Source: a virus (lineage: Duplodnaviria > Heunggongvirae > Uroviricota > Caudoviricetes). From it: 64,000 nt of DNA. Shown here one piece after another: positions 5,354 to 53,791 of this stretch. The stretch's first letter is position 1, and each line of letters starts with the position of its first letter. Under the pieces are notes generated by a model. It was not told the origin of the DNA. It did no database searches and saw only the letters and a list, made by a program, of their open reading frames with translations. A program made the position numbers and the translations under genes. Where the stretch lies: positions 750-64,749 of the IMG/VR virus record IMGVR_UViG_2923350032_000001; one strand, written 5' to 3'.

Positions 5354-6397
5354 GTGAAAGCCATTATTACTCCCTTTGTACAAAAAGAGCTTGGCGTCGC
5401 CACATTCAAAGTGGATCAGGAAGTCAGAAAGCTGGTGGAGGCTGGCCGTAAATTTATTATGGAGCCGGTGCCGCGTGAGTTAATCGAGCACATGGACGAC
5501 GGCCTCGTTGTTTCCGAGCAAACTATGGCAACAAATGAGGCGTTGCAGCCGTTTTTTAACAGCGATGAACTGTTTCGCCGTATTGGTGGAATTGACTCGC
5601 TGGTGGCGTGGTTGCGCAGGAAAGAGGGGCAATGCCAGGCCGCAGATCGTAGTTGGTGTGACAACCATATTGTCCACGCTAAACGAGACAATAGCGCGGT
5701 GTTGCTGTGCTGGCATCACGATAACCATTACCGGATGCGTGGTTTTAATGAGCTGAAAGAAACGCTGCATAATAATCGCGTTAACTGGATACTGGATGTC
5801 GCCCGTCAGGAAATGGGCCTTTCAAATAGCCATGATTTAAGTATTCAGGAGCTGTGCTGGTGGGCTTTCATGCGCAACATGATGCACCTGATGCCGGAAG
5901 AAGTCTGCCGCATATCAATAAATAAGATGAAGGCTGCTCCGCAGGATAGCGGACCTTTGAAAGAGGCGGATATTCGCCCGTATGACGATCGTGCTACAGC
6001 ATATGTTCAGATGATGGAAGAACGCGCCGCGCCGATGCGTGCAAAAGTATGCCCTGTGGATGTTGACTCCGACCCTGGCACGGCGCATTTCAAAATACCA
6101 AAACTGCAATCGCTAAAATTACCCGAGTACATGGACTTTGTTGCTTCCCGTCCGTGCTGTGGATGTGGAGCTGCGGGAGCTGGCGCTCGCATTACGCCTT
6201 ATATCGTTCGTCATAGTCGATTATGCGCGCATGACATTTACGCAATTCCTCTGTGCCAGTCATGCCAGCGTGATATTGAGCGTGACCGCGATAATTGGGA
6301 GAAGACGCACGGCAGGCTGGCGATGCATCAACGATTGTTCTTTGATTACGCGCTTGGAGTCGGCGCTATCACAAGTCACTCGTCGAGCGTTAGATAA
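5354..6397 (+). CDS. hypothetical protein, post-doc region, Cys-rich C-terminus
   Basis: 347-aa ORF with GTG start; position equivalent to pdcB in P1 gene order. Confidence 0.5.
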
Positions 6398-6398
6398 A

Positions 6399-6415
6399 AT
6401 TGCTCTAATGTATTG
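6399..6415 (+). promoter_or_regulatory. C1 operator (ATTGCTCTAATgtaTTg) upstream of lpa
   Basis: match to the 17-bp asymmetric P1 C1 operator consensus ATTGCTCTAATAAATTT. Confidence 0.6.
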
Positions 6416-6485
6416 CTATTTCTTTAATCGAGGGTATTATATTCGTCGTTGATTAGTTGACATGGGCTAATCAGTAGGTGACAGG

Positions 6486-6938
6486 ATGTTACTTAACTGG
6501 CAGGGACGCCACTTCATGGAAATAAATCACTCACGAATTACATCGTATGAGATTGCGGATTACATGATTCGCACTAAATCTCTTCTATCAGCGAAAGAAC
6601 TCGCAGCAATCCTTGAAAAGGAATACCCGCATCTGGATGTCGATAAGCGCGATGTTTATCTGCGCTTAAAGGCTATCGCTGTGTCTAAGTATTCGTCTGT
6701 TTTGATTGATGACAGTACACGCCCACGTAGATTTCAGATCCACTCTCTGAATCCTGAATTCTTTCGCCGTAGCCGCGCTCCGCGCCGGTTTGATGAAAAA
6801 CTCCAGAACGAACTCTATATGACGCAGGACGAAAAGGAACGCCGGGAGCACCAGCCTTGGGTAATGGCGCGTCAACTTTTCAATAAGGTGGCCCGTCAGC
6901 ACCGTCATTACGGTAATGCCACATCCGCACGTATCTGA
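6486..6938 (+). CDS. lpa: late promoter activator Lpa-like protein (true start may be the internal Met at about 6516)
   Basis: 150-aa ORF directly upstream of pacA and downstream of a C1 operator, as in P1. Confidence 0.55.
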   Translation: MLLNWQGRHFMEINHSRITSYEIADYMIRTKSLLSAKELAAILEKEYPHLDVDKRDVYLRLKAIAVSKYSSVLIDDSTRPRRFQIHSLNPEFFRRSRAPRRFDEKLQNELYMTQDEKERREHQPWVMARQLFNKVARQHRHYGNATSARI

Positions 6939-12977: not shown

Positions 12978-13011
12978 ATAACTTCGTATAGCATACATTA
13001 TACGAAGTTAT
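12978..13011. other. loxP site (ATAACTTCGTATA-GCATACAT-TATACGAAGTTAT)
   Basis: exact 34-bp loxP sequence read in the window. Confidence 0.97.
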
Positions 13012-13429
13012 CTTAAGGGTTATTGAACATGATCAATTTACCTGTAAATCCATACAGTTCAATACCTTATCAGGTCAAATAGTGATCACTTGATCATTTG
13101 ATCAAGGTTGCGCTACGTAAAATCTGCGAAATGTTGGCAGTGTTAGTGCTCCAGATTTTGCGTAGCGCACTTAGCACCACCAATCAATCAGAGGTGAAAA
13201 ATGGGATATTCAGCTGCTAAAGTGTCCACTCATATTGAGCTTGAGAAAAACCGTGGTTACTGGCGGGCAAAAGGGTTTGATCGTGATAGTTGTCAACTGT
13301 CATTATCGCGCGGTGAAGAGAAAATAGAGCGCACGCGCGGTCGCTGGCGTTTCTATGACGAGAACCATAAACAGGTAAAGGCAGAGCCGATCCTGTACAC
13401 TTTACTTAAAACCATTATCTGAGTGTTAA

Positions 13430-14461
13430 ATGTCCAATTTACTGACCGTACACCAAAATTTGCCTGCATTACCGGTCGATGCAACGAGTGATGAGGTTCG
13501 CAAGAACCTGATGGACATGTTCAGGGATCGCCAGGCGTTTTCTGAGCATACCTGGAAAATGCTTCTGTCCGTTTGCCGGTCGTGGGCGGCATGGTGCAAG
13601 TTGAATAACCGGAAATGGTTTCCCGCAGAACCTGAAGATGTTCGCGATTATCTTCTATATCTTCAGGCGCGCGGTCTGGCAGTAAAAACTATCCAGCAAC
13701 ATTTGGGCCAGCTAAACATGCTTCATCGTCGGTCCGGGCTGCCACGACCAAGTGACAGTAATGCTGTTTCACTGGTCATGCGACGGATCCGAAAAGAAAA
13801 CGTTGATGCCGGTGAACGTGCAAAACAGGCTCTAGCGTTCGAACGCACTGATTTCGACCAGGTTCGTTCACTCATGGAAAATAGCGATCGCTGCCAGGAT
13901 ATACGTAATCTGGCATTTCTGGGGATTGCTTATAACACCCTGTTACGTATAGCCGAAATTACCAGGATCAGGGTTAAAGATATCTCACGTACTGACGGTG
14001 GGAGAATGTTAATTCATATTGGCAGAACGAAAACGCTGGTTAGCACCGCAGGTGTAGAGAAGGCACTTAGCCTGGGGGTAACTAAACTGGTCGAGCGATG
14101 GATTTCCGTCTCTGGTGTAGCTGATGATCCGAATAACTACCTGTTTTGCCGGGTCAGAAAAAATGGTGTTGCCGCGCCATCTGCCACCAGCCAGCTATCA
14201 ACTCGCGCCCTGGAAGGGATTTTTGAAGCAACTCATCGATTGATTTACGGCGCTAAGGATGACTCTGGTCAGAGATACCTGGCCTGGTCTGGACACAGTG
14301 CCCGTGTCGGAGCCGCGCGAGATATGGCCCGCGCCGGAGTTTCAATACCGGAGATCATGCAAGCTGGTGGCTGGACCAACGTAAATATTGTCATGAACTA
14401 TATCCGTAACCTGGATAGTGAAACAGGGGCAATGGTGCGCCTGCTGGAAGATGGCGATTAG
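13430..14461 (+). CDS. cre: Cre tyrosine recombinase
   Basis: 343-aa product MSNLLTVHQNLPALPVDATSDEVRKNLMDMFRDRQAFSEHTWKMLLSVCRSWAAWCKLNN... Confidence 0.97.
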   Translation: MSNLLTVHQNLPALPVDATSDEVRKNLMDMFRDRQAFSEHTWKMLLSVCRSWAAWCKLNNRKWFPAEPEDVRDYLLYLQARGLAVKTIQQHLGQLNMLHRRSGLPRPSDSNAVSLVMRRIRKENVDAGERAKQALAFERTDFDQVRSLMENSDRCQDIRNLAFLGIAYNTLLRIAEITRIRVKDISRTDGGRMLIHIGRTKTLVSTAGVEKALSLGVTKLVERWISVSGVADDPNNYLFCRVRKNGVAAPSATSQLSTRALEGIFEATHRLIYGAKDDSGQRYLAWSGHSARVGAARDMARAGVSIPEIMQAGGWTNVNIVMNYIRNLDSETGAMVRLLEDGD

Positions 14462-14477
14462 CCATTAACGCGTAAAT

Positions 14478-14494
14478 GATTGCTCTAATTCTTT
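14478..14494 (+). promoter_or_regulatory. C1 operator-like site upstream of cra
   Basis: ATTGCTCTAATtcTTTg. Confidence 0.5.
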
Positions 14495-14511
14495 GATATT
14501 TATGGTGACAT

Positions 14512-14823
14512 ATGAGAAAGGATTTCAACATCGACGGAAAATATGTAGTGCTGTCTGTAAGCACTAATATTCAGTCGCCAGCCGTCATTGTCACTGTAAA
14601 GCTGAGCGATAGAATGCCTGATATTGATTCAATATCCATTGCGTTCCCTGTCAAAAGTATGCGTGGTGCTGAACATTTCGTGATGAATGCCACCGAGGAA
14701 GAAGCACGGCGCGGTTTTGCTAAAGTGATGTCTGAGTTTGGCGAATTTTTGGGGCACGTTGACAAAGCCCTTTCAATCAGTTCAGCAAGATCCAAAGCGT
14801 TAACAGCTTCCATGATGAAATAA
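14512..14823 (+). CDS. cra: Cra (cre-associated function)
   Basis: 103-aa ORF immediately downstream of cre, as in P1. Confidence 0.75.
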   Translation: MRKDFNIDGKYVVLSVSTNIQSPAVIVTVKLSDRMPDIDSISIAFPVKSMRGAEHFVMNATEEEARRGFAKVMSEFGEFLGHVDKALSISSARSKALTASMMK

Positions 14824-14848
14824 AAAAAAGCCTGGCAAGGAGCCAGGC
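14822..14848 (-). terminator. hairpin GCCTGGC-aagga-GCCAGGC with U-tract on the minus strand
   Basis: 7-bp perfect stem flanked by an A8 run on the plus strand; canonical for minus-strand transcripts, weak for plus. Confidence 0.5.
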
Positions 14849-14955
14849 TGCACAAAAGAGCGGGTTTGTATTCCGCATCCAATCAATCAAGAAGGAGTAT
14901 AGCACACAGGTACTGAAGTGAAAAAATGTGATTCGCGATAAACAAAATATCTACC

Positions 14956-14972
14956 ATTGCTCTAATTGATTG
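14956..14972 (+). promoter_or_regulatory. C1 operator upstream of ref followed by a TATAAT -10
   Basis: ATTGCTCTAATtgATTg then TATAAT at about 14974. Confidence 0.6.
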
Positions 14973-15039
14973 TTATAATTGAGCCGCAGTTTTTGTCAAC
15001 TACGAAGACGTTGCCATTACTTCACTCCTTGACATCATT

Positions 15040-15065
15040 GGCGGCCATTAGGCCGCCTTTTTTTT
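15040..15065 (+). terminator. terminator/attenuator-like hairpin GGCGGCC-atta-GGCCGCC + T8 just upstream of ref ATG
   Basis: perfect 7-bp GC stem followed by TTTTTTTT, 7 nt before the ref start codon. Confidence 0.45.
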
Positions 15066-15071
15066 GACCAT

Positions 15072-15647
15072 ATGAAAACAATCGAACAAAAAATTGAACA
15101 GTGCCGCAAGTGGCAGAAGGCAGCCAGAGAACGAGCGATCGCTCGGCAACGGGAGAAGTTGGCTGATCCGGTCTGGCGAGAATCTCAATATCAGAAAATG
15201 CGGGATACTATCGACCGCCGTATCGCTAAACAGAAAGAGCGCCCACCAGCCAGCAAAACGCGGAAAAGTGCGGTAAAAATAAAATCTCGTGGCTTGAAGG
15301 GACGAACACCGACGGCAGAGGAACGGCACATAGCCAATGCTCTTGGCGCTCTCCCCTGCATTGCGTGCTATATGCATGGAGTAATATCTGAAGAGGTGTC
15401 TCTGCACCATATTTCCGGTCGTACCGCGCCTGGTTGTCACAAAAAGCAATTGCCACTTTGTAGATGGCACCACCAGCATGCAGCACCGGCTGAAGTAAGA
15501 GCAAAATACCCCTGGCTGGTCCCTGTTCATGCCGATGGTGTGGTTGGAGGCAAGAAAGAATTCACCCTGCTGAACAAGTCAGAGATGGAGTTACTGGCTG
15601 ACGCCTATGAGGGGTCGTCTCAGAAAACGGAAAATAAAGCACGCTAA
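15072..15647 (+). CDS. ref: Ref (recombination enhancement function, HNH-type); last 11 codons supplied by the transposon inverted repeat
   Basis: 191-aa ORF matching P1 Ref through ...ELLADAYE; the Tn21-type IR starts at 15611 inside the ORF. Confidence 0.85.
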
Positions 15648-18610
15648 GCCGGTTGCAGAGGCCGTAGCGGCCTGAACTTCCCCGCGCCGATCTTGGCGCT
15701 GCTGCGCCATAGGTAATCACCGGTCAGGTTGATGTGCTCCCAGCCGAGTGGCGACAGGTACTGCAATAGCGAGTCATCGACGGCATGACCATTGCCGCGC
15801 AACGCATGCGCCGCACGCTCCAGGTAGACCGTGTTCCACAGCACGATGGCCGCCGTCACCAGGTTGAGGCCGCTGGCCCGGTAGCGCTGCTGCTCGAAAC
15901 TGCGGTCACGGATTTCACCAAGGCGGTTGAAGAACACGGCACGGGCCAGCGCATTGCGCGCCTCGCCCTTGTTCAGCCCGGCATGCACGCGGCGGCGTAG
16001 CTCGACGCTTTGCAGCCAGTCGAGGATGAACAGCGTGCGCTCGATGCGGCCCAACTCGCGCAGCGCGACGGCCAAGCCGTTCTGGCGCGGGTAGCTGCCG
16101 AGTTTCCTGAGCATCAGCGAGGCCGTCACCGTGCCCTGCTTGATCGAGGTGGCCAGCCGCAGGATTTCGTCCCAATGGGCGCGGACGTGCTTGATGTTGA
16201 GCGTGCCGCCGATCATCGGCTTGAGCGCGTCATAGGCGGCATCGCCCTTCGGGATGTAGAGCTTGGTGTCGCCCAGGTCGCGGATGCGCGGCGCGAAGCG
16301 GAAGCCCAAGAGGTGCATCAGGGCGAAGACGTGATCGGTGAAGCCCGCCGTGTCGGTGTAGTGCTCCTCGATCCGCAGGTCGGATTCGTGGTACAGCAGG
16401 CCGTCGAGCACGTAGGTTGAGTCGCGCAGGCCGACATTGACCACCTTGGTGTGGAATGGCGCGTATTGGTCGGAGATGTGGGTGTAGAAAGTCCGTCCTG
16501 GGCTGCTGCCATATTTTGGGTTGATGTGCCCCGTGCTCTTTGCCTTGCTAGCGGTTCGGAAATTCTGTCCGTCCGATGATGATGTGGTGCCATCGCCCCA
16601 GTGCCCGGCAAAGGGATGCCGAAACTGAGCGTTGACCAGTTCAGCCAACGCTGTCGAGTACGTTTCGTCGCGGGTATGCCAGGCTTGCAGCCAAGCGAGC
16701 TTCGCGTAGGTCGTGCCGGGGCAGGACTCGGCCATCTTGGTCAGGCCCAGGTTGATCGCGTCGGCCAGGATCGTGGTCAACAACAGGTTCTTGTCCTTGG
16801 CCAGATCGCCCGATTTCAAGTGCGTGAAGTGCCGGGTGAAGCCCGTCCACTCATCGACTTCGAGCAGCAGTTCGGTGATCTTGACGTGCGGCAGGACCAT
16901 GGCTGTCTGGTCTATCAGCGCCTGCGCGGTGTCGGGCACCGCCGCATCCAGCGGCGTGATCTTCAAGCCCGACTCGGTGATGATGGCATCCGGCAGGTCG
17001 TTGGCTGCCGCCATGCGGTTGACGGTGGCAAGTTGTGCTTCCAGCAGCGTCAGCCGCTCATGCAGATATTGTTCGCAGTCGGTGGCCACGGCCAGCGGCA
17101 ATTCGCTGGACTGCTTGAGGCTGGTGAACTTCTCGGGCGGTACCAGGTAGTCCTCGAAGTCCTTGAACTGGCGTGAACCCTGCACCCAGATGTCGCCCGA
17201 GCGCAGGGAGTTCTTCAACTCGGACAGCGCGCACAGTTCGTAGTAGCGCCGGTCGATGCCGGCGTCGGTCATCACCAGTTTCTGCCAGCGCGGCTTGATG
17301 AAGCCGGTCGGTGCATCGGCTGGCAGCTTGCGGGCGTTGTCGGTGTTCATGCCGCGCAGCACCTCAATGGCATCAAGCACGTTTTTGGCGGCGGGCGCGG
17401 CCCGCAGCTTGAGCACGGCAAGGAATTCCGGTGCATAGCGGCGCAGGGTGGCGTAGCTCTCGCCGATGCGATGCAGGAAATCGAAGTCATCGGGTTGCGC
17501 GAGCTTCTGCGCCTCGGTGACGCTCTCGGCAAAGGAATCCCAGGACATGACGGCCTCGATGGCGGCAAACGCATCGCGGCCTGATTGCTTGGCGTCGATC
17601 AGCGCCTGACCGATGCGCCCGTACAGACGTACCTTGGCGTTGATGGCCTTGCCTGACGCCTGGAACTGCTGCTGATGCTTATTCTTGGCAGCGTTAAACA
17701 GCTTACCCAGGATGCGGTCGTGCAGGTCGATGATTTCGTCGGTGACGGTGGCCATGCCCTCGGTGGCCAGCGCCACGAGAGTGGCGTAGCGCCGTTGCGG
17801 CTCGAATTTGGCCAGGTCGGCGGGTGTCATCTGGCCGCCCTCGCGGGCAATCTTGAGCAGGCGGTTCTGGTGAACCAGCCGCTCGATGCCGGTAGGCAGA
17901 TCGAGTGCCTGCCATGCCTTGAGGCGTTCGATGTGTTCCAGCATATGCCGCGAATTTGGCTTGGCCGGAGACTGGCGCAACCAAGCCAACCAGGTCGTCT
18001 TGCCGTTGTCCCGGCGCTTGAGCAGATCGTCGAGGCGGCGGCGATGCGCGTCCGCCAGTGGTTCGGCCAAGGCGTCGTAGATGCGCCGGTTAGCACGGGT
18101 GATCGCCTCTGCACTCGCCCGCTCGACGGCGTTGAGGGCGGGCAGAATGACCGACTGCCGCCGCAGGTGCCCGATCAAGGCGCTGGCCAGCACGATGCCT
18201 TTGTCGGTTTGCATCGCCAGCTCGGTCAGCATCTGGACGGCCTGCCGGTAATGGCTCATGGTGAAGGGCCGGAAACCGAACACGGTTTGCAGCTCGCTCA
18301 GGTGCTCGCGCCGGGTCTGCTCCCGCTGGCCGTACTCGTTCCAGCTTTCGACGCCGACCTTGAGCTGGTCGGCGACCAGCTTCAACAAGGGCGGGAACGG
18401 TAGTTCATCGACGCCCAGGATGACGCCGGGAAAGCGCAGGTAACAGAGCTGCACCGCGAAGCCCAGCCGATTGGCTGGCCCGCGCCGCTGTCGGATGATC
18501 GAGAGGTCGGTATCGTTGAATGTGTAATGTCGGATCAGGTCGTCCTTGGAGTCCGGCAACGCCAGCAGGCTTTCCCGCTCGGCGGCGGACAGGATGGAAC
18601 GACGTGGCAT
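15644..18610 (-). CDS. tnpA: Tn3-family transposase TnpA (Tn21 type)
   Basis: 988-aa [42 protein letters not shown]... Confidence 0.95.
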
Positions 18611-18612
18611 AT

Positions 18613-19173
18613 TTACTGATCCGTTCTCAAGTATTGATACAGGGTTTCGCGACTGATTCCGAATTCACGAGCAAGCTTGGTCTTTTGCTCGCCAGCCTCG
18701 ATACGTTGGCGCAGTTCGGCAATACGCTCAGACGACAGGGATTTCTTCCTGCCACGGTAAGCCCCGCGTTGCTTGGCGAGCGCAATACCCTCGCGCTGAC
18801 GCTCGCGGATCAGGGCGCGCTCGAACTCGGCGAACGCGCCCATCACCGAGAGCATCAGGTTCGCCATCGGAGAGTCTTCGCCAGTAAAACTGAGGTGTTC
18901 CTTGACGAATTCGATATGCACGCCGCGTTGTGTCAGCGTTTGCACGATCCGGCGCAAATCATCGAGATTGCGCGCCAGGCGATCCATGCTATGCACCACC
19001 ACGGTGTCGCCGGTGCGGGCGAAGCTTATCAGCGCTTCCAGTTGCGGACGCTTGACATCCTTGCCGGATGCCTTGTCGCTAAAAGCGCGATCAACCTTGA
19101 CGCCTTCCAGTTGCCGTTCCGGGTTCTGGTCGAAGGTGCTGACCCTGATATACCCAATGCGCTGTCCAGTCAT
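18613..19173 (-). CDS. tnpR: serine resolvase TnpR
   Basis: 186-aa [24 protein letters not shown]... with catalytic Ser and C-terminal HTH. Confidence 0.95.
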
Positions 19174-19300
19174 GGAATTCCCTGCAAAATGTCAGGGAAG
19201 ACTCTATGACCTTCAACGAGATATGTCAATAAATTCAAAATTCAATCCTATCCTGACGCAATTTACACATGGCATCTGACATCAGGTTAGGGTATGCCTC
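19174..19300. other. probable res (resolution) site upstream of tnpR
   Basis: position relative to tnpR; subsites not mapped. Confidence 0.4.
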
Positions 19301-19405
19301 AACCTGACGGCGGCGAATCACAAGCGTCCGGTTTGACGCTGGTTTCGGTCGCAGTGCTGGCCCGCGCCTGGAAGCGCTGATAGCACTCCAGCCCGCAGAA
19401 ATGCT

Positions 19406-19683
19406 GGCACTGTTGCAAATAGTCGGTGGTGATAAACTTATCATCCCCTTTTGCTGATGGAGCTGCACATGAACCCATTCAAAGGCCGGCATTTTCAGCG
19501 TGACATCATTCTGTGGGCCGTACGCTGGTACTGCAAATACGGCATCAGTTACCGTGAGCTGCAGGAGATGCTGGCTGAACGCGGAGTGAATGTCGATCAC
19601 TCCACGATTTACCGCTGGGTTCAGCGTTATGCGCCTGAAATGGAAAAACGGCTGCGCTGGTACTGGCGTAACCCTTCCGATCT
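19406..19683 (+). mobile_element. partial IS26 (left IR and first 70 or so codons of tnp26), abutting a complete inverted IS26
   Basis: IR GGCACTGTTGCAAA at 19406; Tnp26 N-terminus [18 protein letters not shown]...; ends at the IR of the next copy. Confidence 0.85.
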
Positions 19684-20503
19684 GGCACTGTTGCAAAGTT
19701 AGCGATGAGGCAGCCTTTTGTCTTATTCAAAGGCCTTACATTTCAAAAACTCTGCTTACCAGGCGCATTTCGCCCAGGGGATCACCATAATAAAATGCTG
19801 AGGCCTGGCCTTTGCGTAGTGCACGCATCACCTCAATACCTTTGATGGTGGCGTAAGCCGTCTTCATGGATTTAAATCCCAGCGTGGCGTTGATTATCCG
19901 TTTCAGTTTGCCATGATCGCATTCAATCACGTTGTTCCGGTACTTAATCTGTCGGTGTTCAACGTCAGACGGGCACCGGCCTTCGCGTTTGAGCAGAGCA
20001 AGCGCGCGACCATAGGCGGGCGCTTTATCCGTGTTGATGAATCGTGGGATCTGCCACTTCTTCACGTTGTTGAGGATTTTACCCAGAAACCGGTATGCAG
20101 CTTTGCTGTTACGACGGGAGGAGAGATAAAAATCGACAGTGCGGCCCCGGCTGTCGACGGCCCGGTACAGATACGCCCAGCGGCCATTGACCTTCACGTA
20201 GGTTTCATCCATGTGCCACGGGCAAAGATCGGAAGGGTTACGCCAGTACCAGCGCAGCCGTTTTTCCATTTCAGGCGCATAACGCTGAACCCAGCGGTAA
20301 ATCGTGGAGTGATCGACATTCACTCCGCGTTCAGCCAGCATCTCCTGCAGCTCACGGTAACTGATGCCGTATTTGCAGTACCAGCGTACGGCCCACAGAA
20401 TGATGTCACGCTGAAAATGCCGGCCTTTGAATGGGTTCATGTGCAGCTCCATCAGCAAAAGGGGATGATAAGTTTATCACCACCGACTATTTGCAACAGT
20501 GCC
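19684..20503 (-). mobile_element. IS26 (complete, 820 bp)
   Basis: 14-bp terminal IRs GGCACTGTTGCAAA at 19684 and its complement ending at 20503. Confidence 0.95.
19736..20440 (-). CDS. tnpA: IS26 transposase Tnp26
   Basis: 234-aa DDE transposase [54 protein letters not shown]... Confidence 0.95.
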   Translation of the reverse strand: MNPFKGRHFQRDIILWAVRWYCKYGISYRELQEMLAERGVNVDHSTIYRWVQRYAPEMEKRLRWYWRNPSDLCPWHMDETYVKVNGRWAYLYRAVDSRGRTVDFYLSSRRNSKAAYRFLGKILNNVKKWQIPRFINTDKAPAYGRALALLKREGRCPSDVEHRQIKYRNNVIECDHGKLKRIINATLGFKSMKTAYATIKGIEVMRALRKGQASAFYYGDPLGEMRLVSRVFEM

Positions 20504-20517
20504 CCATATCAGCCCCC

Positions 20518-21108
<591 letters not shown>

Positions 21109-21214
21109 TTAACTGATTCTACGAGATGTCATTTGTCCATTGTGCCAACTGTTATTATGGATATCGTAATTCGTACGAATCGCGCTGTTACAGGATGTAT
21201 AGCAACCTTAATAA

Positions 21215-22447
21215 TTATTTGAATATATCGGTTATAGTTGGGTAATTATACATCTTAAGCTTATCTCTAAATTTCATAGAAAATATAGGGTCTACCTTAC
21301 ATCTCTGTGAGAGCTTTGCAAGCCTTAGCTCCCTCTCTTTCATAATATCTTTGTATTCTCTATCAATACTCTCCTGAATTTGCTGATTCTCAACAGGAGA
21401 CGGTTTTGTAATTTTATCCCATTGATAAGTTGGATTCTCAGTGTAATTTAAATCATCATTTTGAAGTAATTTCTCAAGATGAGACATAGCATTTTCATAT
21501 AGCATTCTATCTTGGGGCAACATACTTGCAACACGCACTTCGCTTTCAATTTCCGATACTATCATTTCAAGTTGACGTTTTTCCATCGCTATAGCTACAC
21601 GGAATGGAAACAGGGCTTCTTGCTTAATCATTTGACAATTCACATTATTGTTTATGTCACTAAGTAATTTTACAAATGAGAACTTCGCTAAAGGCTGCTG
21701 ATTTATGACACTCTGTCTAACTGGCATTGTGTAGCTCGGTGTTTTTTCAAGTGTTTTCTTCACTTGCTCTATAGCAACATTAGGAGTTTTGAGAACAGTC
21801 TTTGCTGGAATACGTAGCACCATAAACCCCTCCTTTATTGAATATTCATCACGAATACGATCTCGCTCTATTTGTTCAGGGGATGAATGCCATGCTGCAC
21901 CATCAATTTCTATAATTTGGCGTCCATTTACGACAAAATCAAAACGATAACGCTTATAGGGCACTTGCATTTCAAGCACTAAGTCAGGAGAAACTAACAT
22001 TCCAGATTTAGGTTTAAGATTAAACTCTGCAACCATTTTACGAAGAAATGCCTCCTCAGCCGGAGATTCGCAACCTTTGCAAAATATATCAAGCCAGTTT
22101 TCTGCGTCAGCGTCAACAGTTTGCCACCATGCTAACAGTCCGCGTCGGTGTCCATATAATCGTTCATCTGACGGTTTTGTTAATGGCTTTGTTAACGGTT
22201 TAATTAAGGGTTCATTTAACGGCTTATTTAACGGATTTAATAACGATTCATTTAATGGTTTGATTGACGGTCTATTTGACGACTCAATCGGTGGTTTAGA
22301 TGATGATTTGTTTTTTTTATCAAAACCTACGATAGTTATATATGCTACATATAGCATCATGCCTGCAACAGGCCATACACATGGATAAATCACGTAACAC
22401 AACAGTAATAGAACAATAGTCCCAAAAAATGTTAACTTCTTCCGCAT
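21215..22447 (-). CDS. membrane-anchored protein with DUF559/Vsr-like (PD-(D/E)xK-type) endonuclease-like domain
   Basis: 410-aa ORF in an AT-rich segment: two N-terminal hydrophobic helices, proline-rich KPLxx repeats, then RFDFVVNGRQIIEIDGAAWHSSPEQIERDRIRDEYSIKEGFMVLRI, then an unassigned C-terminal domain. Confidence 0.6.
   Translation of the reverse strand: MRKKLTFFGTIVLLLLCYVIYPCVWPVAGMMLYVAYITIVGFDKKNKSSSKPPIESSNRPSIKPLNESLLNPLNKPLNEPLIKPLTKPLTKPSDERLYGHRRGLLAWWQTVDADAENWLDIFCKGCESPAEEAFLRKMVAEFNLKPKSGMLVSPDLVLEMQVPYKRYRFDFVVNGRQIIEIDGAAWHSSPEQIERDRIRDEYSIKEGFMVLRIPAKTVLKTPNVAIEQVKKTLEKTPSYTMPVRQSVINQQPLAKFSFVKLLSDINNNVNCQMIKQEALFPFRVAIAMEKRQLEMIVSEIESEVRVASMLPQDRMLYENAMSHLEKLLQNDDLNYTENPTYQWDKITKPSPVENQQIQESIDREYKDIMKERELRLAKLSQRCKVDPIFSMKFRDKLKMYNYPTITDIFK
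22168..22300. repeat. tandem 15-nt repeats encoding the proline-rich KPLxx linker of ORF 21215-22447
   Basis: ttaa(c/t)ggNtt(g/a)tt-type units read in sequence. Confidence 0.6.
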
Positions 22448-22499: not shown

Positions 22500-22891
22500 G
22501 CCCGAAATAAAAGATGACCAACACCAACGGAAATAACACTCTAAAGCTCCACCGCCAGCACCACCAGCACCACCAGCACCACCAGCACCACCAGCACCAC
22601 CAGCAACTGCACCCAAGGTAGAAGTTCCTTTAATATTATATCCAGTAACACTACCAGCTACTGCACCGAGAACAGCACCGAAAGTCTGAGCTGCTTATTT
22701 ATTAGCTGTATTATCAACTTTTACTTTGGCTGGGAGAACAGAGATTATATTTACTACTCTTGTTTTGAATTAAGTTGGGCTGTGTCGTACACATCTGCCG
22801 CATATTCAGCACCATTAGACTGACACCCTGAGAGAAAAATTGCAGAAACAACCATGACGCATAAAGAAGAAATTTTAGCCATTAGAATCAT
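22500..22891 (-). pseudogene. possible disrupted glycine-zipper lipoprotein gene (lipobox signal peptide, then out-of-frame Gly/Ala-rich segment)
   Basis: MAKISSLCVMVVSAIFLSGC lipobox ORF stops at 22754; an adjacent frame encodes AAQTFGAVLGAVAGSVTGY...GAGGAGGAGG without a start codon. Confidence 0.3.
22548..22614. repeat. tandem hexanucleotide repeat (CACCAG/GCACCA), about 10 units
   Basis: ccaccagcaccaccagcacc... read in sequence; encodes a Gly-Ala run on the minus strand. Confidence 0.85.
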
Positions 22892-23182
22892 CCCAGAAAA
22901 AAATATAATCCAAGAAAATCTATCACATAAGCCAAATACAAACAAGATTACAAACAAGATTAATCCTATTGATGTATATCAATTATTATAAAAAATACGA
23001 TCTTCATTGCTGAAGCTGCGTTATATTAAGTCTAAAAAAATCAACCATCGATATTATATGCTCTGCTAATAATTTATACTTGATTTAGTTGAATTGGATT
23101 AATATTGACACTTACTCACTCTCTAATTATATATAATTTCCAATTTTATATGCGCATATATAGAAACCTATACCAATAGCAC

Positions 23183-40010: not shown

Positions 40011-40046
40011 AAACCGGCCAACGTAGCCGGTTGGAAGGGAGTCGTA

Positions 40047-40439
40047 TTATTCTACGCTTTCGATGAGAAGACCATGTTCATAGCATTTAAGCTCATCGCC
40101 CTCGTACAGGAATTGGTATCCAATACCACCATATTCAGGCACATTAGGGAATAACTCATCACTTACCGAAGAACAAATCACACCAATGCAGCGATCAACG
40201 CCTTCTCGTTCTTCAGTGCTGAAAAAATCCTCTTCGGTAAGAACATGAGTACATTGCTCATCAGCATAGGTCAGAAATACATGCTCGATGCAATCCGGGT
40301 GTTTTAAACCAAGCTGATCGGCAAGCTCGAAAGCATGACGGTATTGTTCAGATCCTGGCTTGCCAACAGTGATTTGCTCAATTTTGTAGATTGAAGTCGT
40401 TTTGTTGATAGTTTGCTTTACTGTTACTTTATCAGACAT
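40047..40439 (-). CDS. hypothetical protein
   Basis: 130-aa ORF upstream of oriR. Confidence 0.4.
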   Translation of the reverse strand: MSDKVTVKQTINKTTSIYKIEQITVGKPGSEQYRHAFELADQLGLKHPDCIEHVFLTYADEQCTHVLTEEDFFSTEEREGVDRCIGVICSSVSDELFPNVPEYGGIGYQFLYEGDELKCYEHGLLIESVE

Positions 40440-40450
40440 AAAAATCCCTT

Positions 40451-40783
40451 TTAGTTACCGCTGATAGCGCGGTTGTAATCATTAACGTTGCGATTCTTCC
40501 TGTTAATCCCCATCAGCATCGTTTCTGTATCAAGGATATAGGCTGGCAGATCATCAAAATATTCACTGCTAAACTCTGGCATCCTGCACATAAATGCACT
40601 TTTGGGGGCAGGGTGATTAACCTTTGTCGGCGTCGGCGTTAAATTCGCTGATCGACTCCCGGAGCAACCGCTGAGTGTCAACAGGAATGCGCTGGCGAAC
40701 ACTACCCGACGCAACCAGTTGTTTCTGAACTTCAGCTTTTCGTTCCATTTGTCTGTCTGCATACTTCGCTTGTTCTGATTCAT
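40451..40783 (-). CDS. o-spanin-like outer-membrane lipoprotein (Rz1-like) overlapping the i-spanin gene in another frame
   Basis: lipobox LLTLSGCSG followed by a Pro-rich segment; out-of-frame overlap with 40617-41039. Confidence 0.4.
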   Translation of the reverse strand: MNQNKRSMQTDKWNEKLKFRNNWLRRVVFASAFLLTLSGCSGSRSANLTPTPTKVNHPAPKSAFMCRMPEFSSEYFDDLPAYILDTETMLMGINRKNRNVNDYNRAISGN

Positions 40784-41039
40784 TTTTCACTTCCTGGCTG
40801 TGAAAATGTTGATCCGCTTTATTCATCGTCTCAATGGTCTGGTTAAGATCAATGATTGACTTATCGCGCTCCTTAACAGCCTGATCAAGGCTGCCAATTT
40901 TTTCCAAGGCGTGCTTTAACTGATAACGTTCCCATGCAAACCCAGCACCAACAAGTGCGCAAATCAGGACAAGAACACCAGTAACAGCAAGTTTCTCCTT
41001 CAAAGACAAAGCTGTTTTTAACGTTGAAAAAAACGACAT
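40617..41039 (-). CDS. i-spanin-like protein (Rz-like): N-terminal TM helix plus coiled coil
   Basis: 140-aa ORF, hydrophobic residues 18-36, charged helical remainder. Confidence 0.45.
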   Translation of the reverse strand: MSFFSTLKTALSLKEKLAVTGVLVLICALVGAGFAWERYQLKHALEKIGSLDQAVKERDKSIIDLNQTIETMNKADQHFHSQEVKNESEQAKYADRQMERKAEVQKQLVASGSVRQRIPVDTQRLLRESISEFNADADKG

Positions 41040-41078
41040 TTCTTCCTCCTGAAGAAAAATTATCTGTGAAGTCCTTTG

Positions 41079-41924
41079 TTAAAGTGTCGCCTTGTTTAAT
41101 TCATCAAGAACAGAATCAGGAACCAAAGCGGCAACTGCGCTGGCTGTGCTGGCCTTATTTGCTGATGCTTCCGCAAGCGCGGTACCGATAGCATGGTTAT
41201 AAGCAGTTATGGCTACGCTGGCGCTTTCCTTCGCTCGTTCATACTGCTGTTGCAATGCTGCTACCGGTACTGTTGTCTGGTCGAAAAAAGCACCAAATTG
41301 TTCAGTTGCTTCCTTCAGTGCTTCAACTTGTTGTTCTGTCAGTGCTGGTGGGGGAGTGACTGCGCCGCCACCTGAATCAGAGCCTGACGAGCTTCCTGAG
41401 CCTGTGTTAAGGGTCTGGTTAATGTCCCCCATAACAGCGACTAAACTCGACGTATTAAGCGCATTTACAGCGTCCTCAAGCGATTTCGTTGTAGTCGCGT
41501 CACCAATGGCAATAGAGATCGGCAGTTTTGAAACTTCTCGCTCATTAGCACGACAGTAAACATCCCAACCAATATCGAGTTGAAGGAGCATTGACAGATC
41601 AGCATAACCAGCCAACAGCTCCGCGTGCTGAGTTGCCAGCCCTCCAATATTCGTTAAACCGGTTGTAGTTGTTCTGATCGTTGAAACATAACTGGTAATA
41701 GTGTCGGGATAGACAATTGTATCCAGAATTAATCCGGTCAATTCTTCTGCAAGCAGTTTTGCTGTGTTAGCACTGTTTCGTGCCGATGTTATGGCACCAG
41801 GTGTTTTCATCCCACCGGCGGCGGCCAATTTTTTATATGCGGATAACTGGTAGTCTTTTTCCAGCATGATATCTCCTAACTTACCTGAACCAGGCCGTCT
41901 CCGGACGCTACGGTAGATCCGCAT
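41079..41924 (-). CDS. hypothetical protein with Gly/Ser-rich linker
   Basis: 281-aa ORF; start likely the internal Met near 41865. Confidence 0.4.
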   Translation of the reverse strand: MRIYRSVRRRPGSGKLGDIMLEKDYQLSAYKKLAAAGGMKTPGAITSARNSANTAKLLAEELTGLILDTIVYPDTITSYVSTIRTTTTGLTNIGGLATQHAELLAGYADLSMLLQLDIGWDVYCRANEREVSKLPISIAIGDATTTKSLEDAVNALNTSSLVAVMGDINQTLNTGSGSSSGSDSGGGAVTPPPALTEQQVEALKEATEQFGAFFDQTTVPVAALQQQYERAKESASVAITAYNHAIGTALAEASANKASTASAVAALVPDSVLDELNKATL

Positions 41925-42160
41925 GAAACAGGGTCACCAACGCATACGATCCCTTTACCATTGACGGTAAACCATGCCCTGGTTGATATAGCTTGCCCAC
42001 CGTGCGTACTGTTTCCATCGGTATGCTGTGCATATTGCTTACCATCAACTAACACTTCGACTCCGTTGACTTTAAGTAGTGGTTCACTCTCTACAGGAGG
42101 CCTGGATGGGAATCCTCCGTGCCCCGAACAAATGCTGTCTTTTGTTGCAATACTCGCCAC
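41876..42160 (-). CDS. PAAR-like domain protein
   Basis: 94-aa ORF with CSGHGG...HTDGNSTHGG...GDPVSCG pattern. Confidence 0.5.
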   Translation of the reverse strand: MASIATKDSICSGHGGFPSRPPVESEPLLKVNGVEVLVDGKQYAQHTDGNSTHGGQAISTRAWFTVNGKGIVCVGDPVSCGSTVASGDGLVQVS

Positions 42161-42241
42161 ATCACCACCAATTGTTTGCTCTAAGTTTTGTTATTTTAAC
42201 TTAGGTTTATTGTGGCTTTAGTGTCATTGTCTTTGAGATTA

Positions 42242-42258
42242 ATTGCTCTAATAAATAT
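42242..42258 (+). promoter_or_regulatory. C1 operator upstream of the hrdC-dmt operon
   Basis: ATTGCTCTAATAAATAT. Confidence 0.65.
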
Positions 42259-42330
42259 TGTTTTTTTATATCGTGTTTTCGGTACCATTCAGGCATCGCC
42301 CTTCAATGGGCATTAGTTAGGAGTCGTCAG

Positions 42331-42615: not shown

Positions 42616-43513
42616 GCACTGGAAAAACATTACTATTTATAAACTTTCTCGTGAGGCGGATCTGACCGACTTAGAAGATAAAAAGAAAATGATCCTTTTC
42701 ACGCCATGCGGTAGTCAGGATATGGCCAAGTTCGGTTTTGTATCGCCATTTGGTGATAATTCCGAAGTTATCGCTATGCATGGAAATGGTTTTATCCTTG
42801 TTGAAGCAAAGCGCGAAACAAAAATTCTTCCCCCGCCGGTTATCCAGCGAGCTATTCAAGAAAAAATTGAAAAACTTGAGCAAGAACAAGCGCGTAAACT
42901 GAAGAAAACAGAGAAGGACTCCCTGAAAGACGAAGTTCTGCATTCTCTTCTGCCACGGGCTTTTTCAAAGTTTTCTGTTATCCAGGCGATCTACGACGGT
43001 TCAACTAAACGTATCTATATCAATGCCAGCGCGCGGCAGGCAGAGGATATGCTCGCGCTTATGCGTAAATCTCTGGGTTCTCTTCCTGTTGTTCCCCTAA
43101 GTGTTGAAAATCCCATTGAATTAACGCTGACCGACTGGGTACGTGATGGTAGTGCTCCACAGGGATTTCAAATGGGGGATGCGGCAGAACTTAAGGCAGT
43201 GCTTGAGGATGGCGGTATTGCCCGAGTGAAAAAGCAGGACTTGGGAAGTGATGAAATATCCACACACCTGGAAGCTGGCAAGCTCGTCACTAAGTTGGCA
43301 CTCGACTGGCAGAACCGCATTAAATTTACACTGGACCATAACTTCAGCCTTACCAGCGTCAAATTTGCGGATGAATTGCTTGAGCAGAACTCTGATATTG
43401 ATAGTGAAGATGTTGCGCAGCGACTGGACGCAGATTTCTTCCTATTGACCAGTGAAATTTCGTGCCTGGTTGATGCTCTGGTAAATGCCCTTGGTGGAGA
43501 GGCTAAGCAGTGA
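42608..43513 (+). CDS. hrdC: RdgC-like recombination-associated protein
   Basis: RdgC-like sequence ...[13 protein letters not shown]...[21 protein letters not shown]...ALDWQNRI...; start placed at Met 42608. Confidence 0.85.
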
Positions 43514-46500
43514 AAGAGCTGTGCTATGGATCTGTTTGCAGTGGAATTGAAGCCGCGAGTATTGCCTGGGAACCGTTGGGTATGCGTCCGGTTTGGTTTG
43601 CTGAAATCGAGCCTTTTCCATCGGCCGTTCTTGCGCTCCGCTGGCCCCATGTCGCCAACCTTGGCGACATGACAAAACTTGCCAAAAAAGTCTTGGCTGG
43701 GGAAATCGAATCCCCTGACGTGCTCGTCGGGGGAACACCATGTTTTACCGCGGGGCATATGGTTCTTTGTAAAAATGGTTATAAACCAATAGAAGATATT
43801 TGCCCTGGCGATTACGTAGTCAGTCATCTCGGGCGGTTACAACAAGTAAAAAGAGTTGGTTCAAAAATAGCTAATACGGGGTTACTTAATGCCGTTGGGC
43901 AGCCTTTAGGTATAAGAACAACCAATGACCATCCCTTCCTGGCGGTTCGGTGGAAAGCCCAAAACACCCGGAAAAATGGCACATATTTTAAGAGAGAGTT
44001 GTTGTCTGAACCGGAATGGCGAGCAGCATGTGATATGCCGGGATATCAATGGTGCGCTCTAACTAATTTCAATATTGCATCTCCAGATATTTGTTCTCGG
44101 TTCTTGTCTGAAGAACAGGCTATGTATCTTGCGGGCGCTTATGTTGGCGATGGATATATTAGGAGATGGAGAGGTAAATCTAAGAAGGCGGTTGTTTTTG
44201 GCATAAATTGCCAGAAATTGAGAAAGTTTCATTGCCGCATACCAGAAAACATATTTTCCGTGGCAAGCGAAATCCGAGGGAGCATCAAAGTAACCTTGAA
44301 TGATACGTGTTATGCCAATTGGCTTAATGAACATTTTGGCGAGTTAAGCCATGCTAAGCGTATCCCTGCATGGGTGATGTCGCATCCATTGCGTCATGTG
44401 TTTTTACAAGGCTATCTTGATACTGATGGGACACCAAGTGGTAAAGCGGGATTTAGAATTAATAGTGTTAGTCCTGCGCTTGCTTGGGGCGTTGCGGGGT
44501 TGTCACAGACTTGTGGTTATGTTTCTTCGGTCAGCTTTATTGAAGTTGAGCCCAAAAAAGTGATCGAGGATCGCGTGGTAAATCAACGGAATTATTATCA
44601 GGTAACAATCTGCCCGCAGAAATTGTCACGTAAATCAAGATTGGCTCATGGAATGCTTTTACGAACAGTCAAAGAGTTTAAATCGGTAGGCCTAGATACT
44701 GTATACAACATAGAAGTCGAAGGTGATCATTCCTATATCCTCAATGGTGCGGTGGTCCATAACTGTCAGGCATTCAGTATCGCGGGCTTACGTGGTGGGC
44801 TTGATGATGAACGCGGCGCGCTAACTTTGAAGTATGTGGAGCTTGCAAATGCAATTGACGACAAACGGTCTGAGTCCTTCCTCAAACCGACAGTTATCGT
44901 CTGGGAAAATGTCCCAGGAGTCCTGTCATCGGCAGATAACGCCTTCGGATGTTTCCTTGCCGGATTGGCTGGAGAAGATGCGCCATTTGAACCAGGTGAT
45001 CGACCTGAATCAGGAAAAAGTAACGCGTTCTGGCGGTGGGATGGCAAAACCGGTTGCCATGCTCCAAAGTGGCCGCAGTGTGGTTGTATTTATGGACCGC
45101 AGCGAAAGGTGGCCTGGAGAATCCTTGATGCCCAATACTTCGGAGTGGCACAACGACGCCGACGCGTGTTTGTTGTCGCAAGTGCTCGAACAGACCTCGA
45201 TCCCGCAACGGTACTTTTTGAGTTCGAAGGCGAGCGCCGGGATATTGCGCCGAGCAGAGGCGAGGGGAAGGAAACTACCAGATATACTTCAAACATCGCT
45301 ATCAGATCTTGCGATGATACAAACATAATTGCCATGGCACATGGGCAAGGAGGGGCTGAGATAAAAACCGATAATTCGGCACCAACTTTGACATGTAACC
45401 ATGAAGCACCAATTGTATTGCTCGGCGACGATAGAATGCGCCGTCTTACCCCTGTCGAATGTGAAAGGCTGCAAGGTTTTCCTGATTGGCATACGTTGAT
45501 CCCTACGGGAAAGCGTAAAAAAGTTTCTTCAGATGAACTGGCATACCTTCGCAATAACTATCCTGATTTAAACGAAGAAGAGGCCGCGATGCTTGCAGCT
45601 GACGGACCGCGTTACAAAGCGATCGGAAATAGTATGGCAATACCAGTAATGCGCTGGATTGGCGATCGGATTACTAAGGCTGCATGTCGGCAAAAAGAAG
45701 GGAGTGAAACAAAAGAGCGAAAGGTTAAACCAGCGGCAGAATTCGAACGGCCCATATTCAAATGGGCTGGTGGAAAATTTGGTGTTCTGGAACAAATCTT
45801 TCGCTATTTGCCAGAAGGGAAGCGCCTGATTGAACCTTTCGTTGGTGGCGGAGCTGTCTTCATGAATGCCGGATATCAGGAAAATCTGCTAAATGATGTG
45901 AATGCTGACCTGATTAACTTTTACAAGACTCTGCAACGTGAGGCGCATTCACTTATCACTCTGGCACATCGTTTCTTCCTGTACTACAACACCCAGGAGG
46001 GATTCCTGGCAGTACGGAATGCGTTTAACAAACAAGTCTATGATGATTTACATCGCGCAGCGGCGTTTTTGTTCCTGAACCGACATTGTTTTAATGGATT
46101 GACGCGCTACAACCAGGCCGGTGAGTTCAATGTCGGGTATGGGAAGTATAAGTCTACGCATTTTCCATTACAGGAGATGGAAGCCTTCCTCGGTGCGGAA
46201 GGGCGGTCTGAGTTTGTATGCGGTGATTTTGCAGCGGTGATTGAAGCTGCCGGAGAAGGAGATGTCATCTTTTGCGATCCGCCGTATGAACCGCTCCCCA
46301 ATACAGAGGGGTTCACGAACTATTCCGGTCATGACTTTAAGTTTGAAGAGCAAAAACGCCTGGTGTCTCTGTTGACGGATGCTCATCGCCGAGGTGCAAA
46401 GGTTCTCATTACTAACAGTGGCGCGCCAAACATCAGAGAACTTTATCAGGACAGTGGCTTCAGAGTGGAACCTCTTTTTGCCAGACGTTCTGTGTCTTGT

Positions 46501-46551
46501 AAGGGAGACACTCGTGGTGTTGCTCATGACGTTATAGCAATATTGCTCTAA
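43510..46551 (+). CDS. dmt: bifunctional DNA methyltransferase Dmt (N-terminal C5-cytosine MTase interrupted by an intein; C-terminal Dam-like N6-adenine MTase)
   Basis: C5 motifs [28 protein letters not shown]; Dam-like FVGGGAVF and DPPY; GTG start overlapping hrdC stop. Confidence 0.85.
43741..44763 (+). other. intein with LAGLIDADG homing-endonuclease domain, in frame within dmt
   Basis: starts Cys (CFTAGHMVL), block [18 protein letters not shown] and LQGYLDTDG, ends [21 protein letters not shown] followed by Cys; excision restores [12 protein letters not shown]. Confidence 0.8.

Positions 46552-50644: not shown

Positions 50645-53791
<3,147 letters not shown>

Follow-up and report, generated by a model that had tools for sequence, protein, structure and literature searches.

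The minus-strand genes lying beside the plasmid origin, upfC-upfB-ppfA-mlp(-upfA), very probably form a single late unit that encodes two distinct devices for crossing the cell envelope, one for entry and one for exit, and the position of this unit next to the replicon is best taken as a matter of history. The genes are located in the 64-kb stretch of DNA analysed herein, which we refer to as the window and which is a P1-like phage-plasmid. The region between 40000 and 42600 of the window was found to be about 96% identical in nucleotide sequence, with matching gene order, to positions 62903-65502 of P1 (NC_005856), and 95% identical to P7. The P1/P7 counterparts of upfC, upfB, ppfA, mlp, and upfA (NC_005856 62950-65063) share genes, order, strands, and overlaps with the window, and amino-acid substitutions between the window and P1 are few. 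In the P1 annotation the same five genes follow one another on the minus strand, and are then followed by oriR and repA. A sequence-only reading of this region had pointed to four ORFs and had proposed a comparison with the upf genes of P1. All four ORFs were present at the positions given, each on the minus strand, and the comparison identified the block as upfC, upfB, ppfA, and mlp, with upfA in addition.

Outside this block the window departs from P1. A Tn21-family transposase and resolvase, followed by IS26, are located between cre/ref and pmgC, and about 40 kb of the P1 backbone is missing between cre and pmgC. The missing part includes prt, pro, lyz, the dar genes, lydABC, the tail fibres, sit, and tub, and neither the endolysin gene nor the holin genes of P1 are present within the 64-kb window. 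On the P1 map the two ends of the window abut. A defective prophage of about 65 kb was considered from the loss of 40 kb of backbone and was not adopted, the nearest plasmid to this element being a rearranged replicon of 134 kb.

The first gene of the unit, upfC (41876-42160, minus strand), starts with GTG and encodes a PAAR-type spike-tip protein of 94 aa. In phmmer searches against PDB, 93 of the 94 residues were identical to chain A of 9vyi, deposited as 'UpfC' (E 1.7e-60). Significant similarity was also detected to T4 gp5.4 (5iv5 and 4ku0; E about 1e-7, the best being 8.6e-8) and to the T6SS-type PAAR protein 4jiv (E 3.7e-4). The match to PHROG 281 was clear (E 2e-30), and that to the Pfam PAAR_motif was borderline, at 26.4 bits just under the 27-bit cut-off. 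UpfC lacks the toxin extension that many T6SS PAAR proteins carry. The T4 gp5.4 and PAAR-repeat tips (4ku0, 5iv5, 4jiv) resemble UpfC in length (about 95 aa) and, like it, sit as one cone on top of a spike that is a beta-helical trimer. These similarities make UpfC a member of the PAAR fold family, as the sequence-only reading had suggested for the 94-aa ORF. Among 64 distinct haplotypes, derived from 75 IMG/VR relatives, upfC was intact in 63.

The spike on which such a tip would be mounted is encoded in the same genome. Gene 5 is located at 50645-51277 on the minus strand of the window, and its product matches P1 Gp5 (PDB 9vzk_q) with an E value of 7.6e-137, indicating that UpfC has a trimeric beta-helical partner. 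UpfC was first tied to gp5.4 by HHpred, and a upfC deletion plaques normally (PMC9024508). Its place in the virion has since been established by cryo-EM, in which monomeric UpfC caps the trimeric gp5 needle (PMC12810830; bioRxiv 2025.07.21.665459). Two differences from T4 are apparent: T4 gp5 has a lysozyme domain, whereas the P1 spike gp5 is without one, and the P1 tip bears an additional UpfB tripod, unlike tips of the T4 gp5.4 type.

UpfB is encoded at 41079-41867 on the minus strand. The annotated ORF extends to 41924 and gives 281 aa, the length stated in the sequence-only reading; the true start is, however, probably located 19 codons downstream, leaving a protein of 262 aa. The 281-aa ORF overlaps upfC by 49 nt and is devoid of a ribosome-binding site, whereas the ATG at 41867 is preceded by AGGAG at a distance of 5 nt and by the upfC stop codon at 8 nt. 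The 15 homologues that were aligned (43-97% identity to the window protein) all have MLEKDYQL or MLSTTNQL as their first residues, and the alignment of PHROG 1559 to the ORF begins at residue 20. The shorter form is preferred because the AGGAG sequence, the homologue starts, and the PHROG alignment all agree on it.

The other feature of UpfB that had been pointed out, a Gly/Ser linker, was confirmed. In the AF2 model (mean pLDDT 82), which contains helices only, an N-terminal bundle is joined by the disordered Gly/Ser linker (residues 158-169) to a C-terminal helical hairpin, so that the protein is all-alpha with two domains. Foldseek comparison of this model with PDB gave no match at E <= 0.001, only generic helical bundles being retrieved (best E 0.06), and the UpfB sequence gave no match in PDB. 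The window protein is 98% identical to the database UpfB, and the UpfB gene directly follows the PAAR gene in P1, in the Salmonella P1-like plasmids L087 and L089, and in phage D6. From full-length homology and gene position, UpfB is a member of the P1 UpfB 'tripod' family. By cryo-EM the spike tip bears three trimeric densities, the 'tripod', which have been assigned to UpfB and into which an AlphaFold3 model was fitted at medium resolution (PMC12810830). The reported tripod role in the virion, which is not atomically resolved, may accordingly be expected for the present protein too.

Downstream of upfB lie the two genes of a predicted two-component spanin, ppfA (40617-41039, minus strand; 140 aa) and mlp (40451-40783, minus strand; 110 aa). 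PpfA, preceded by a strong Shine-Dalgarno sequence (AGGAGG), contains a single strongly hydrophobic segment near its N-terminus (residues 17-35; mean Kyte-Doolittle value 2.48), followed by a charged periplasmic part with zero cysteines. The AF2 model gave a helix at residues 13-110, a break at 111-119, and a second helix at 120-137, at a low pLDDT of 64. PpfA thereby shows the features of an i-spanin, a single N-terminal membrane anchor and a periplasmic domain that is largely helical, the helices being modelled at low confidence. The product of mlp, a lipoprotein precursor, has the lipobox LSG followed by Cys40, and Ser instead of Asp at the +2 position, and from these features it would be an o-spanin. 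Its mature part is 71 aa long and includes one further Cys, so the pair has the periplasmic Cys expected of a spanin in mature Mlp and none in PpfA. Matches to PHROG families annotated as 'Rz-like spanin' were obtained for both proteins, PpfA with PHROG 89 (E 1.3e-22) and Mlp with PHROG 30284 (E 2e-74). An Rz/Rz1-like pair had been suggested for this locus; ppfA and mlp are the catalogued P1 pair, and both the membrane segment and the lipobox were observed.

The lipoprotein ORF had also been described as embedded in the gene for the membrane protein, and this point needs correction. The mlp gene begins 256 nt into ppfA in the +1 frame, shares 167 nt with it, and runs 166 nt beyond the ppfA stop codon; the arrangement is of the overlapped class. 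SpaninDB likewise lists P1 as 'ovl', with gp064 as i-spanin and gp063 as o-spanin, in a family of its own, and remarks on gp063 'Too long signal sequence', with LipoP cleavage at position 39. The P1 pair was predicted from such features by Summer 2007, as cited in PMC9025707, where the pair is likewise treated as a prediction and the i- and o- labels are swapped.

Compared with lambda Rz/Rz1, the pair is similar in architecture: each consists of a type II protein of the inner membrane whose periplasmic domain has two helices, and of a lipoprotein of the outer membrane that is encoded in the +1 frame. The lambda genes are, however, embedded and form part of the S-R-Rz lysis cassette, whereas the P1-type pair is overlapped and unlinked to an endolysin; lambda Rz has a periplasmic Cys and PpfA none; and mature Mlp has 71 aa against about 40 aa for lambda Rz1. 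Homology between PpfA and lambda Rz was not detected by hhalign of the PpfA profile (probability 0.9%), and PpfA had no match in Pfam. PpfA appears to be an analogue of lambda Rz, and not a member of the Rz sequence family (Pfam Phage_lysis). With respect to gene arrangement the closer parallel is P2 LysB/LysC, the prototype overlapped spanin (Kongari 2018), in which the o-spanin is also overlapped and in the +1 frame; the P2 pair has been experimentally tested, whereas ppfA/mlp is a predicted pair in a separate SpaninDB family. No other spanin candidate was found within the 64-kb window.

As mlp overlaps another gene, we considered a chance ORF, with ppfA the sole real gene. The same set of 64 haplotypes was used to compare the two frames. 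In the 166-nt segment that is mlp only, 22 sites were variable, of which 17 fell at mlp codon position 3; the changes were 16 synonymous versus 6 non-synonymous in the mlp frame, against 2 versus 20 in the other two frames, a pattern that proves purifying selection on the mlp frame. The mlp ORF was intact in 63 of the 64 haplotypes, and among 23 protein variants the lipobox was invariant and the hydrophobic core showed conservative changes only. Within the 167-nt overlap, 12 of the 18 variable sites were at the third position of ppfA codons, corresponding to the second position of mlp codons; because the changes fall there, Mlp residues 1-23 vary freely. This freedom at sites silent in ppfA, together with a signal sequence that looks overlong, is what a chance ORF would predict. 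On the other hand, homologous lipoprotein ORFs in the +1 overlap are present in L087, L089, and D6, and the pair retains its +1 overlap and a mature N-terminus of CSG(N/S) in lineages where the i-spanin is only 57%, 21%, and 17% identical. Furthermore, over all six frames of the window only 2 ORFs had a lipoprotein-type signal, whereas triplet-shuffled windows contained 0.2 on average, and mlp is the sole one of the two that overlaps a membrane-protein gene. These observations support the conclusion that ppfA and mlp are both real genes; a chance origin of mlp is effectively refuted, and we give it practically no probability.

The start of Mlp is a separate matter. The signal sequence as annotated is unusually long, 39 residues, and the first 23 of these are unconstrained. 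Initiation at the TTG of mlp codon 24 would yield a canonical signal peptide, MRRVVFASAFLLTLSG, with cleavage before C, and in the Salmonella lineage the corresponding codon is ATG. All three close lineages, however, also retain an ATG at about -39. The start is uncertain because the TTG at codon 24 fits a signal peptide well, yet the upstream ATG is conserved.

The last gene of the unit, upfA (40047-40439, minus strand), encodes a protein of 130 aa belonging to PHROG 1453 (function unknown). It is followed at 40012-40032 by a terminator-like hairpin on the same strand, with a 9-pair stem including 5 GC pairs and a T-run, located before the DnaA box of oriR. The zone between the mlp stop codon and oriR is variable: a gp49-like gene and a 51%-identical UpfA allele are found in 12 of 80 relatives, one relative carries a 1.3-kb insertion, and in JL22 blaCTX-M-55 is inserted in upfA.

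All five genes are expressed late. In the RNA-seq data for P1vir (Table S1 of PMC8201110; wild type, log fold change at 10 and 30 min), the values were 4.9 and 10.6 for upfC, 4.1 and 11.1 for upfB, 5.6 and 11.2 for ppfA, 4.1 and 10.5 for mlp, and 5.2 and 11.2 for upfA. The late comparators behaved in the same way, with 5.4 and 12.1 for gene 23, 6.1 and 11.3 for lyz, and 5.2 and 11.8 for lydA. The early genes uhr, hrdC, dmt, repA, parA, and parB had already reached 7.4-9.5 at 10 min (uhr 8.6, hrdC 9.4, dmt 8.8, repA 7.4, parA 9.5; PMC8201110). Since these late kinetics are common to all five genes, upfC-upfA behave as one late unit.

The region upstream of this unit, at 42161-42330, is a divergent control region. 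According to the P1 annotation it contains the C1 operator Odmt (42242-42258) and the promoter Pdmt, from which uhr-hrdC-dmt is driven in the opposite direction. The block had been placed between oriR and hrdC; the oriR side holds, and on the other side the immediate neighbour of upfC is uhr, with hrdC coming next. In the alignment with P1 and the Salmonella lineage, only the C1 operator and a TAAAAT/TACAAT hexamer were conserved in this intergenic region. The hexamer, a -10-like TAAAAT at 42193-42198 on the minus strand, is located 32 nt before the upfC start codon. Late promoters of the Lpa type were modelled as AAGTNACTT-N4-TANNNT after the annotated LP23. No such site with up to 2 mismatches was detected upstream of upfC, upfB, or ppfA, nor with a spacing of 3-6 nt and 1 mismatch, and the scan of the minus strand upstream of upfC gave no sigma-70 consensus. 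A perfect LP-like site upstream of the PAAR gene of L089 was set aside, as a strong hairpin and T-run are located between the site and the ATG.

On entry, UpfC serves as a single PAAR-type cone capping the trimeric gp5 tail spike, and the all-helical UpfB is reported to be attached to the UpfC tip as three trimers; both proteins would contact the host envelope before other parts of the virion. On exit, the N-terminal helix of PpfA would hold this protein in the inner membrane, with a long helical rod spanning the periplasm, while Mlp, carrying a lipid at Cys40, would be delivered to the outer membrane; PpfA and Mlp would make contact with each other across the meshwork of murein. After removal of the murein by the endolysin Lyz, they would complete lysis in the manner of lambda Rz/Rz1, by fusing or disrupting the outer membrane. 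Spanin activity of the pair is predicted from its sequence features. When mlp, ppfA, upfB, upfC, and upfA were knocked down by CRISPRi, plating was not impaired and the genes were scored as non-essential, a result that agrees with the dispensability of spanins and spike tips on plates.

The same knock-down result would fit an envelope pair with another role, such as regulation of lysis timing or superinfection exclusion. This alternative agrees with the 2004 P1 annotation, in which mlp is a 'membrane lipoprotein precursor, possibly involved in regulation of lysis', with the lack of sequence homology to lambda Rz, and with the separation of ppfA/mlp from lyz and lydAB in P1, and spanin function of this pair is a predicted one (PMC9025707). 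We nevertheless consider it unlikely, because all hallmarks of a two-component spanin are present and are kept at i-spanin identities of about 17-21%, both proteins match Rz-like PHROGs, expression is late alongside the lysis genes, the window offers no second spanin candidate, and laboratory cultures that are shaken can do without spanins (PMC9025707). Linkage of the PAAR tip, the tripod protein, and the spanin-like pair is kept in four lineages at about 17-27% identity, and the three never adjoin an endolysin. Such linkage might suggest that PpfA/Mlp are coupled functionally to the tail-tip proteins, in envelope crossing or in assembly or protection of the tip at the membrane facing the periplasm, instead of or besides lysis, a role with which the normal plating would agree but which we regard as very improbable.

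The position beside oriR raises another alternative, that the block belongs functionally to the plasmid replicon or maintenance region and plays a role in the prophage-plasmid state. Adjacency to oriR is conserved in both P1-type and Salmonella L087-type elements, and in D6 partition genes are located just upstream of the PAAR gene. The block is, however, expressed with late kinetics, unlike repA, parA, and parB; a terminator separates upfA from oriR; the stretch from mlp to oriR is a variable cargo zone; UpfC and UpfB are parts of the virion; and two lineages have no replicon between the block and the capsid gene. A replicon function is thus hardly to be expected, and the reading of the block as a late entry-and-exit unit is retained.

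The gene order among relatives suggests how this unit came to lie beside the origin. A four-gene module of PAAR, UpfB-like protein, i-spanin, and overlapped o-spanin is common to the window, D6 (orf57-orf54), L087, and L089. Read along its minus strand, P1 has upfC, upfB, ppfA, mlp, and upfA, then the replication-partition cassette (oriR, repA, incA, parAB, and parS), and then genes 23, 22, and 21. Salmonella L087, in which PpfA is 57% identical, has PAAR, UpfB, the i/o-spanin pair, a gp49-like gene, RepA, and ParAB. In Salmonella L089 (UpfB 42% identical) PAAR, UpfB, and the i/o-spanin pair are followed by the gene 23 capsid and the sheath, with no replicon in between; phage D6, with a UpfB-like protein 27% identical to that of L089, has the same module, two small reverse-strand genes, and then capsid and sheath. 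Thus the module runs toward the capsid and sheath genes without an intervening replicon in D6 and L089, whereas the replicon occupies this place in P1 and L087. The annotated start of D6 orf54 is located downstream of its own lipobox. For homologues outside the P1/D6 group, a word-indexed protein search retrieved P1-like elements only, mostly on contigs of about 90-100 kb.

The simplest reading of this synteny is that the tail-tip and spanin block forms the upstream end of the array of structural genes and has been separated from the rest by the maintenance cassette. The block adjoins the plasmid origin because the P1 replication-partition cassette lies between it and the capsid-sheath genes; as to direction, the replicon was presumably inserted into the block-capsid junction. 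The neighbourhood of lysis-type and spike-tip-type genes with the replicon had been called an odd juxtaposition. This impression is not borne out: the block is late like the structural cluster, it is closed by a terminator before oriR, and it is located shortly upstream of the capsid and sheath genes in relatives that have no replicon at this place. Homology to conserved P1 genes of unrelated function had been named as the result that would speak against the earlier assignments. The genes are indeed conserved in P1, and their known or predicted functions are those that had been guessed.

The finding is real but ordinary, because the genes are the known upfC, upfB, ppfA, and mlp of P1. They have been named since the 2004 annotation, the UpfC tip is in PDB, UpfB was described in 2026, and the spanin pair, predicted by Summer et al. 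2007 according to PMC9025707, was catalogued in the 2018 spanin survey. The block has been wholly described already and holds nothing new. For the annotation of P1-like elements, the refinements are the probable 262-aa start of UpfB, the term 'overlapped' in place of 'embedded' for the spanin pair, and the uncertain start of Mlp. For the organization of the P1 genome, the synteny offers a neat explanation for the presence of tail-tip and lysis genes right beside the plasmid origin.

The minus-strand unit running from upfC to upfA has a late transcription profile in published RNA-seq data (PMC8201110). Within the region upstream of upfC (window 42161-42330), no recognisable Lpa-type promoter, the type of P1 late promoters, and no good sigma-70 promoter was found. 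Two conserved elements lie in this region, a C1 operator at 42242-42258 and a TAAAAT hexamer on the minus strand at 42193-42198. In the Salmonella P1-like element L089, which carries a PAAR-UpfB-spanin block, a perfect element of the P1 late-promoter-like type, AAGTAACTT-N4-TACACT, was detected within 5662-5712 of that record. A strong hairpin with a T-run is located 3' of this element, its end only 3 nt away from the PAAR start codon (ATG), and this order of promoter and then terminator is odd.

Natural disruptions of the unit were observed among P1-like elements. The upfB gene, encoding the reported tripod protein, is interrupted by an insertion of approximately 1.8 kb in L032 and of approximately 1.3 kb in L049, while in L054 a 1.3-kb insertion lies 3' of mlp, between mlp and upfA. 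The stop codon of upfC is lost in L061, and mlp of L078, which translates to a product one residue shorter, failed the check for an intact ORF under the flag 'stop'.

In the introduction of PMC9025707, ppfA is named the o-spanin and mlp the i-spanin. These labels are reversed as judged from the sequences and SpaninDB, by which ppfA is the predicted i-spanin and mlp the predicted o-spanin. Besides mlp, the only ORF with a lipoprotein-type signal in the window encodes 67 aa (22754-22957, minus strand; Cys45), between an IS4-like element and the sim/ant region. For phage D6 (NC_050154), the annotated start of orf54 (6239-6502) falls 3' of its own lipobox. When this frame is translated from an upstream start, the resulting signal peptide has MTLSG|CSGN at its end, and orf54 is therefore a predicted overlapped o-spanin, with orf55 as its partner; neither gene carries a spanin annotation.

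The Dmt methyltransferase ORF (1013 aa; 43510-46551) contains an insertion of about 1 kb (43743-44764), which looks like an intein, since it carries Hint and LAGLIDADG domains and splits the C5-methylase catalytic motif (GGTPC|...HN|CQAFS). This insertion is absent from the P1 and P7 references, and is present in 125 of the 345 plasmids and in 5 of the 15 phage records that matched.

Between cre/ref and pmgC, positions 15644-20458 (context 13000-21300) hold a 988-aa transposase of the Tn21/TnAs3 family together with a resolvase and IS26. In P1, some 40 kb of backbone is located between these genes, and it is missing from the window, including portal, protease, lyz, dar, lydABC, tail fibres, baseplate wedge, sit and tub. 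As this backbone is absent and the two ends of the window are adjacent to each other on the map of P1, the source is either a P1 derivative that a deletion has reduced to about 65 kb or a larger plasmid that has undergone rearrangement.
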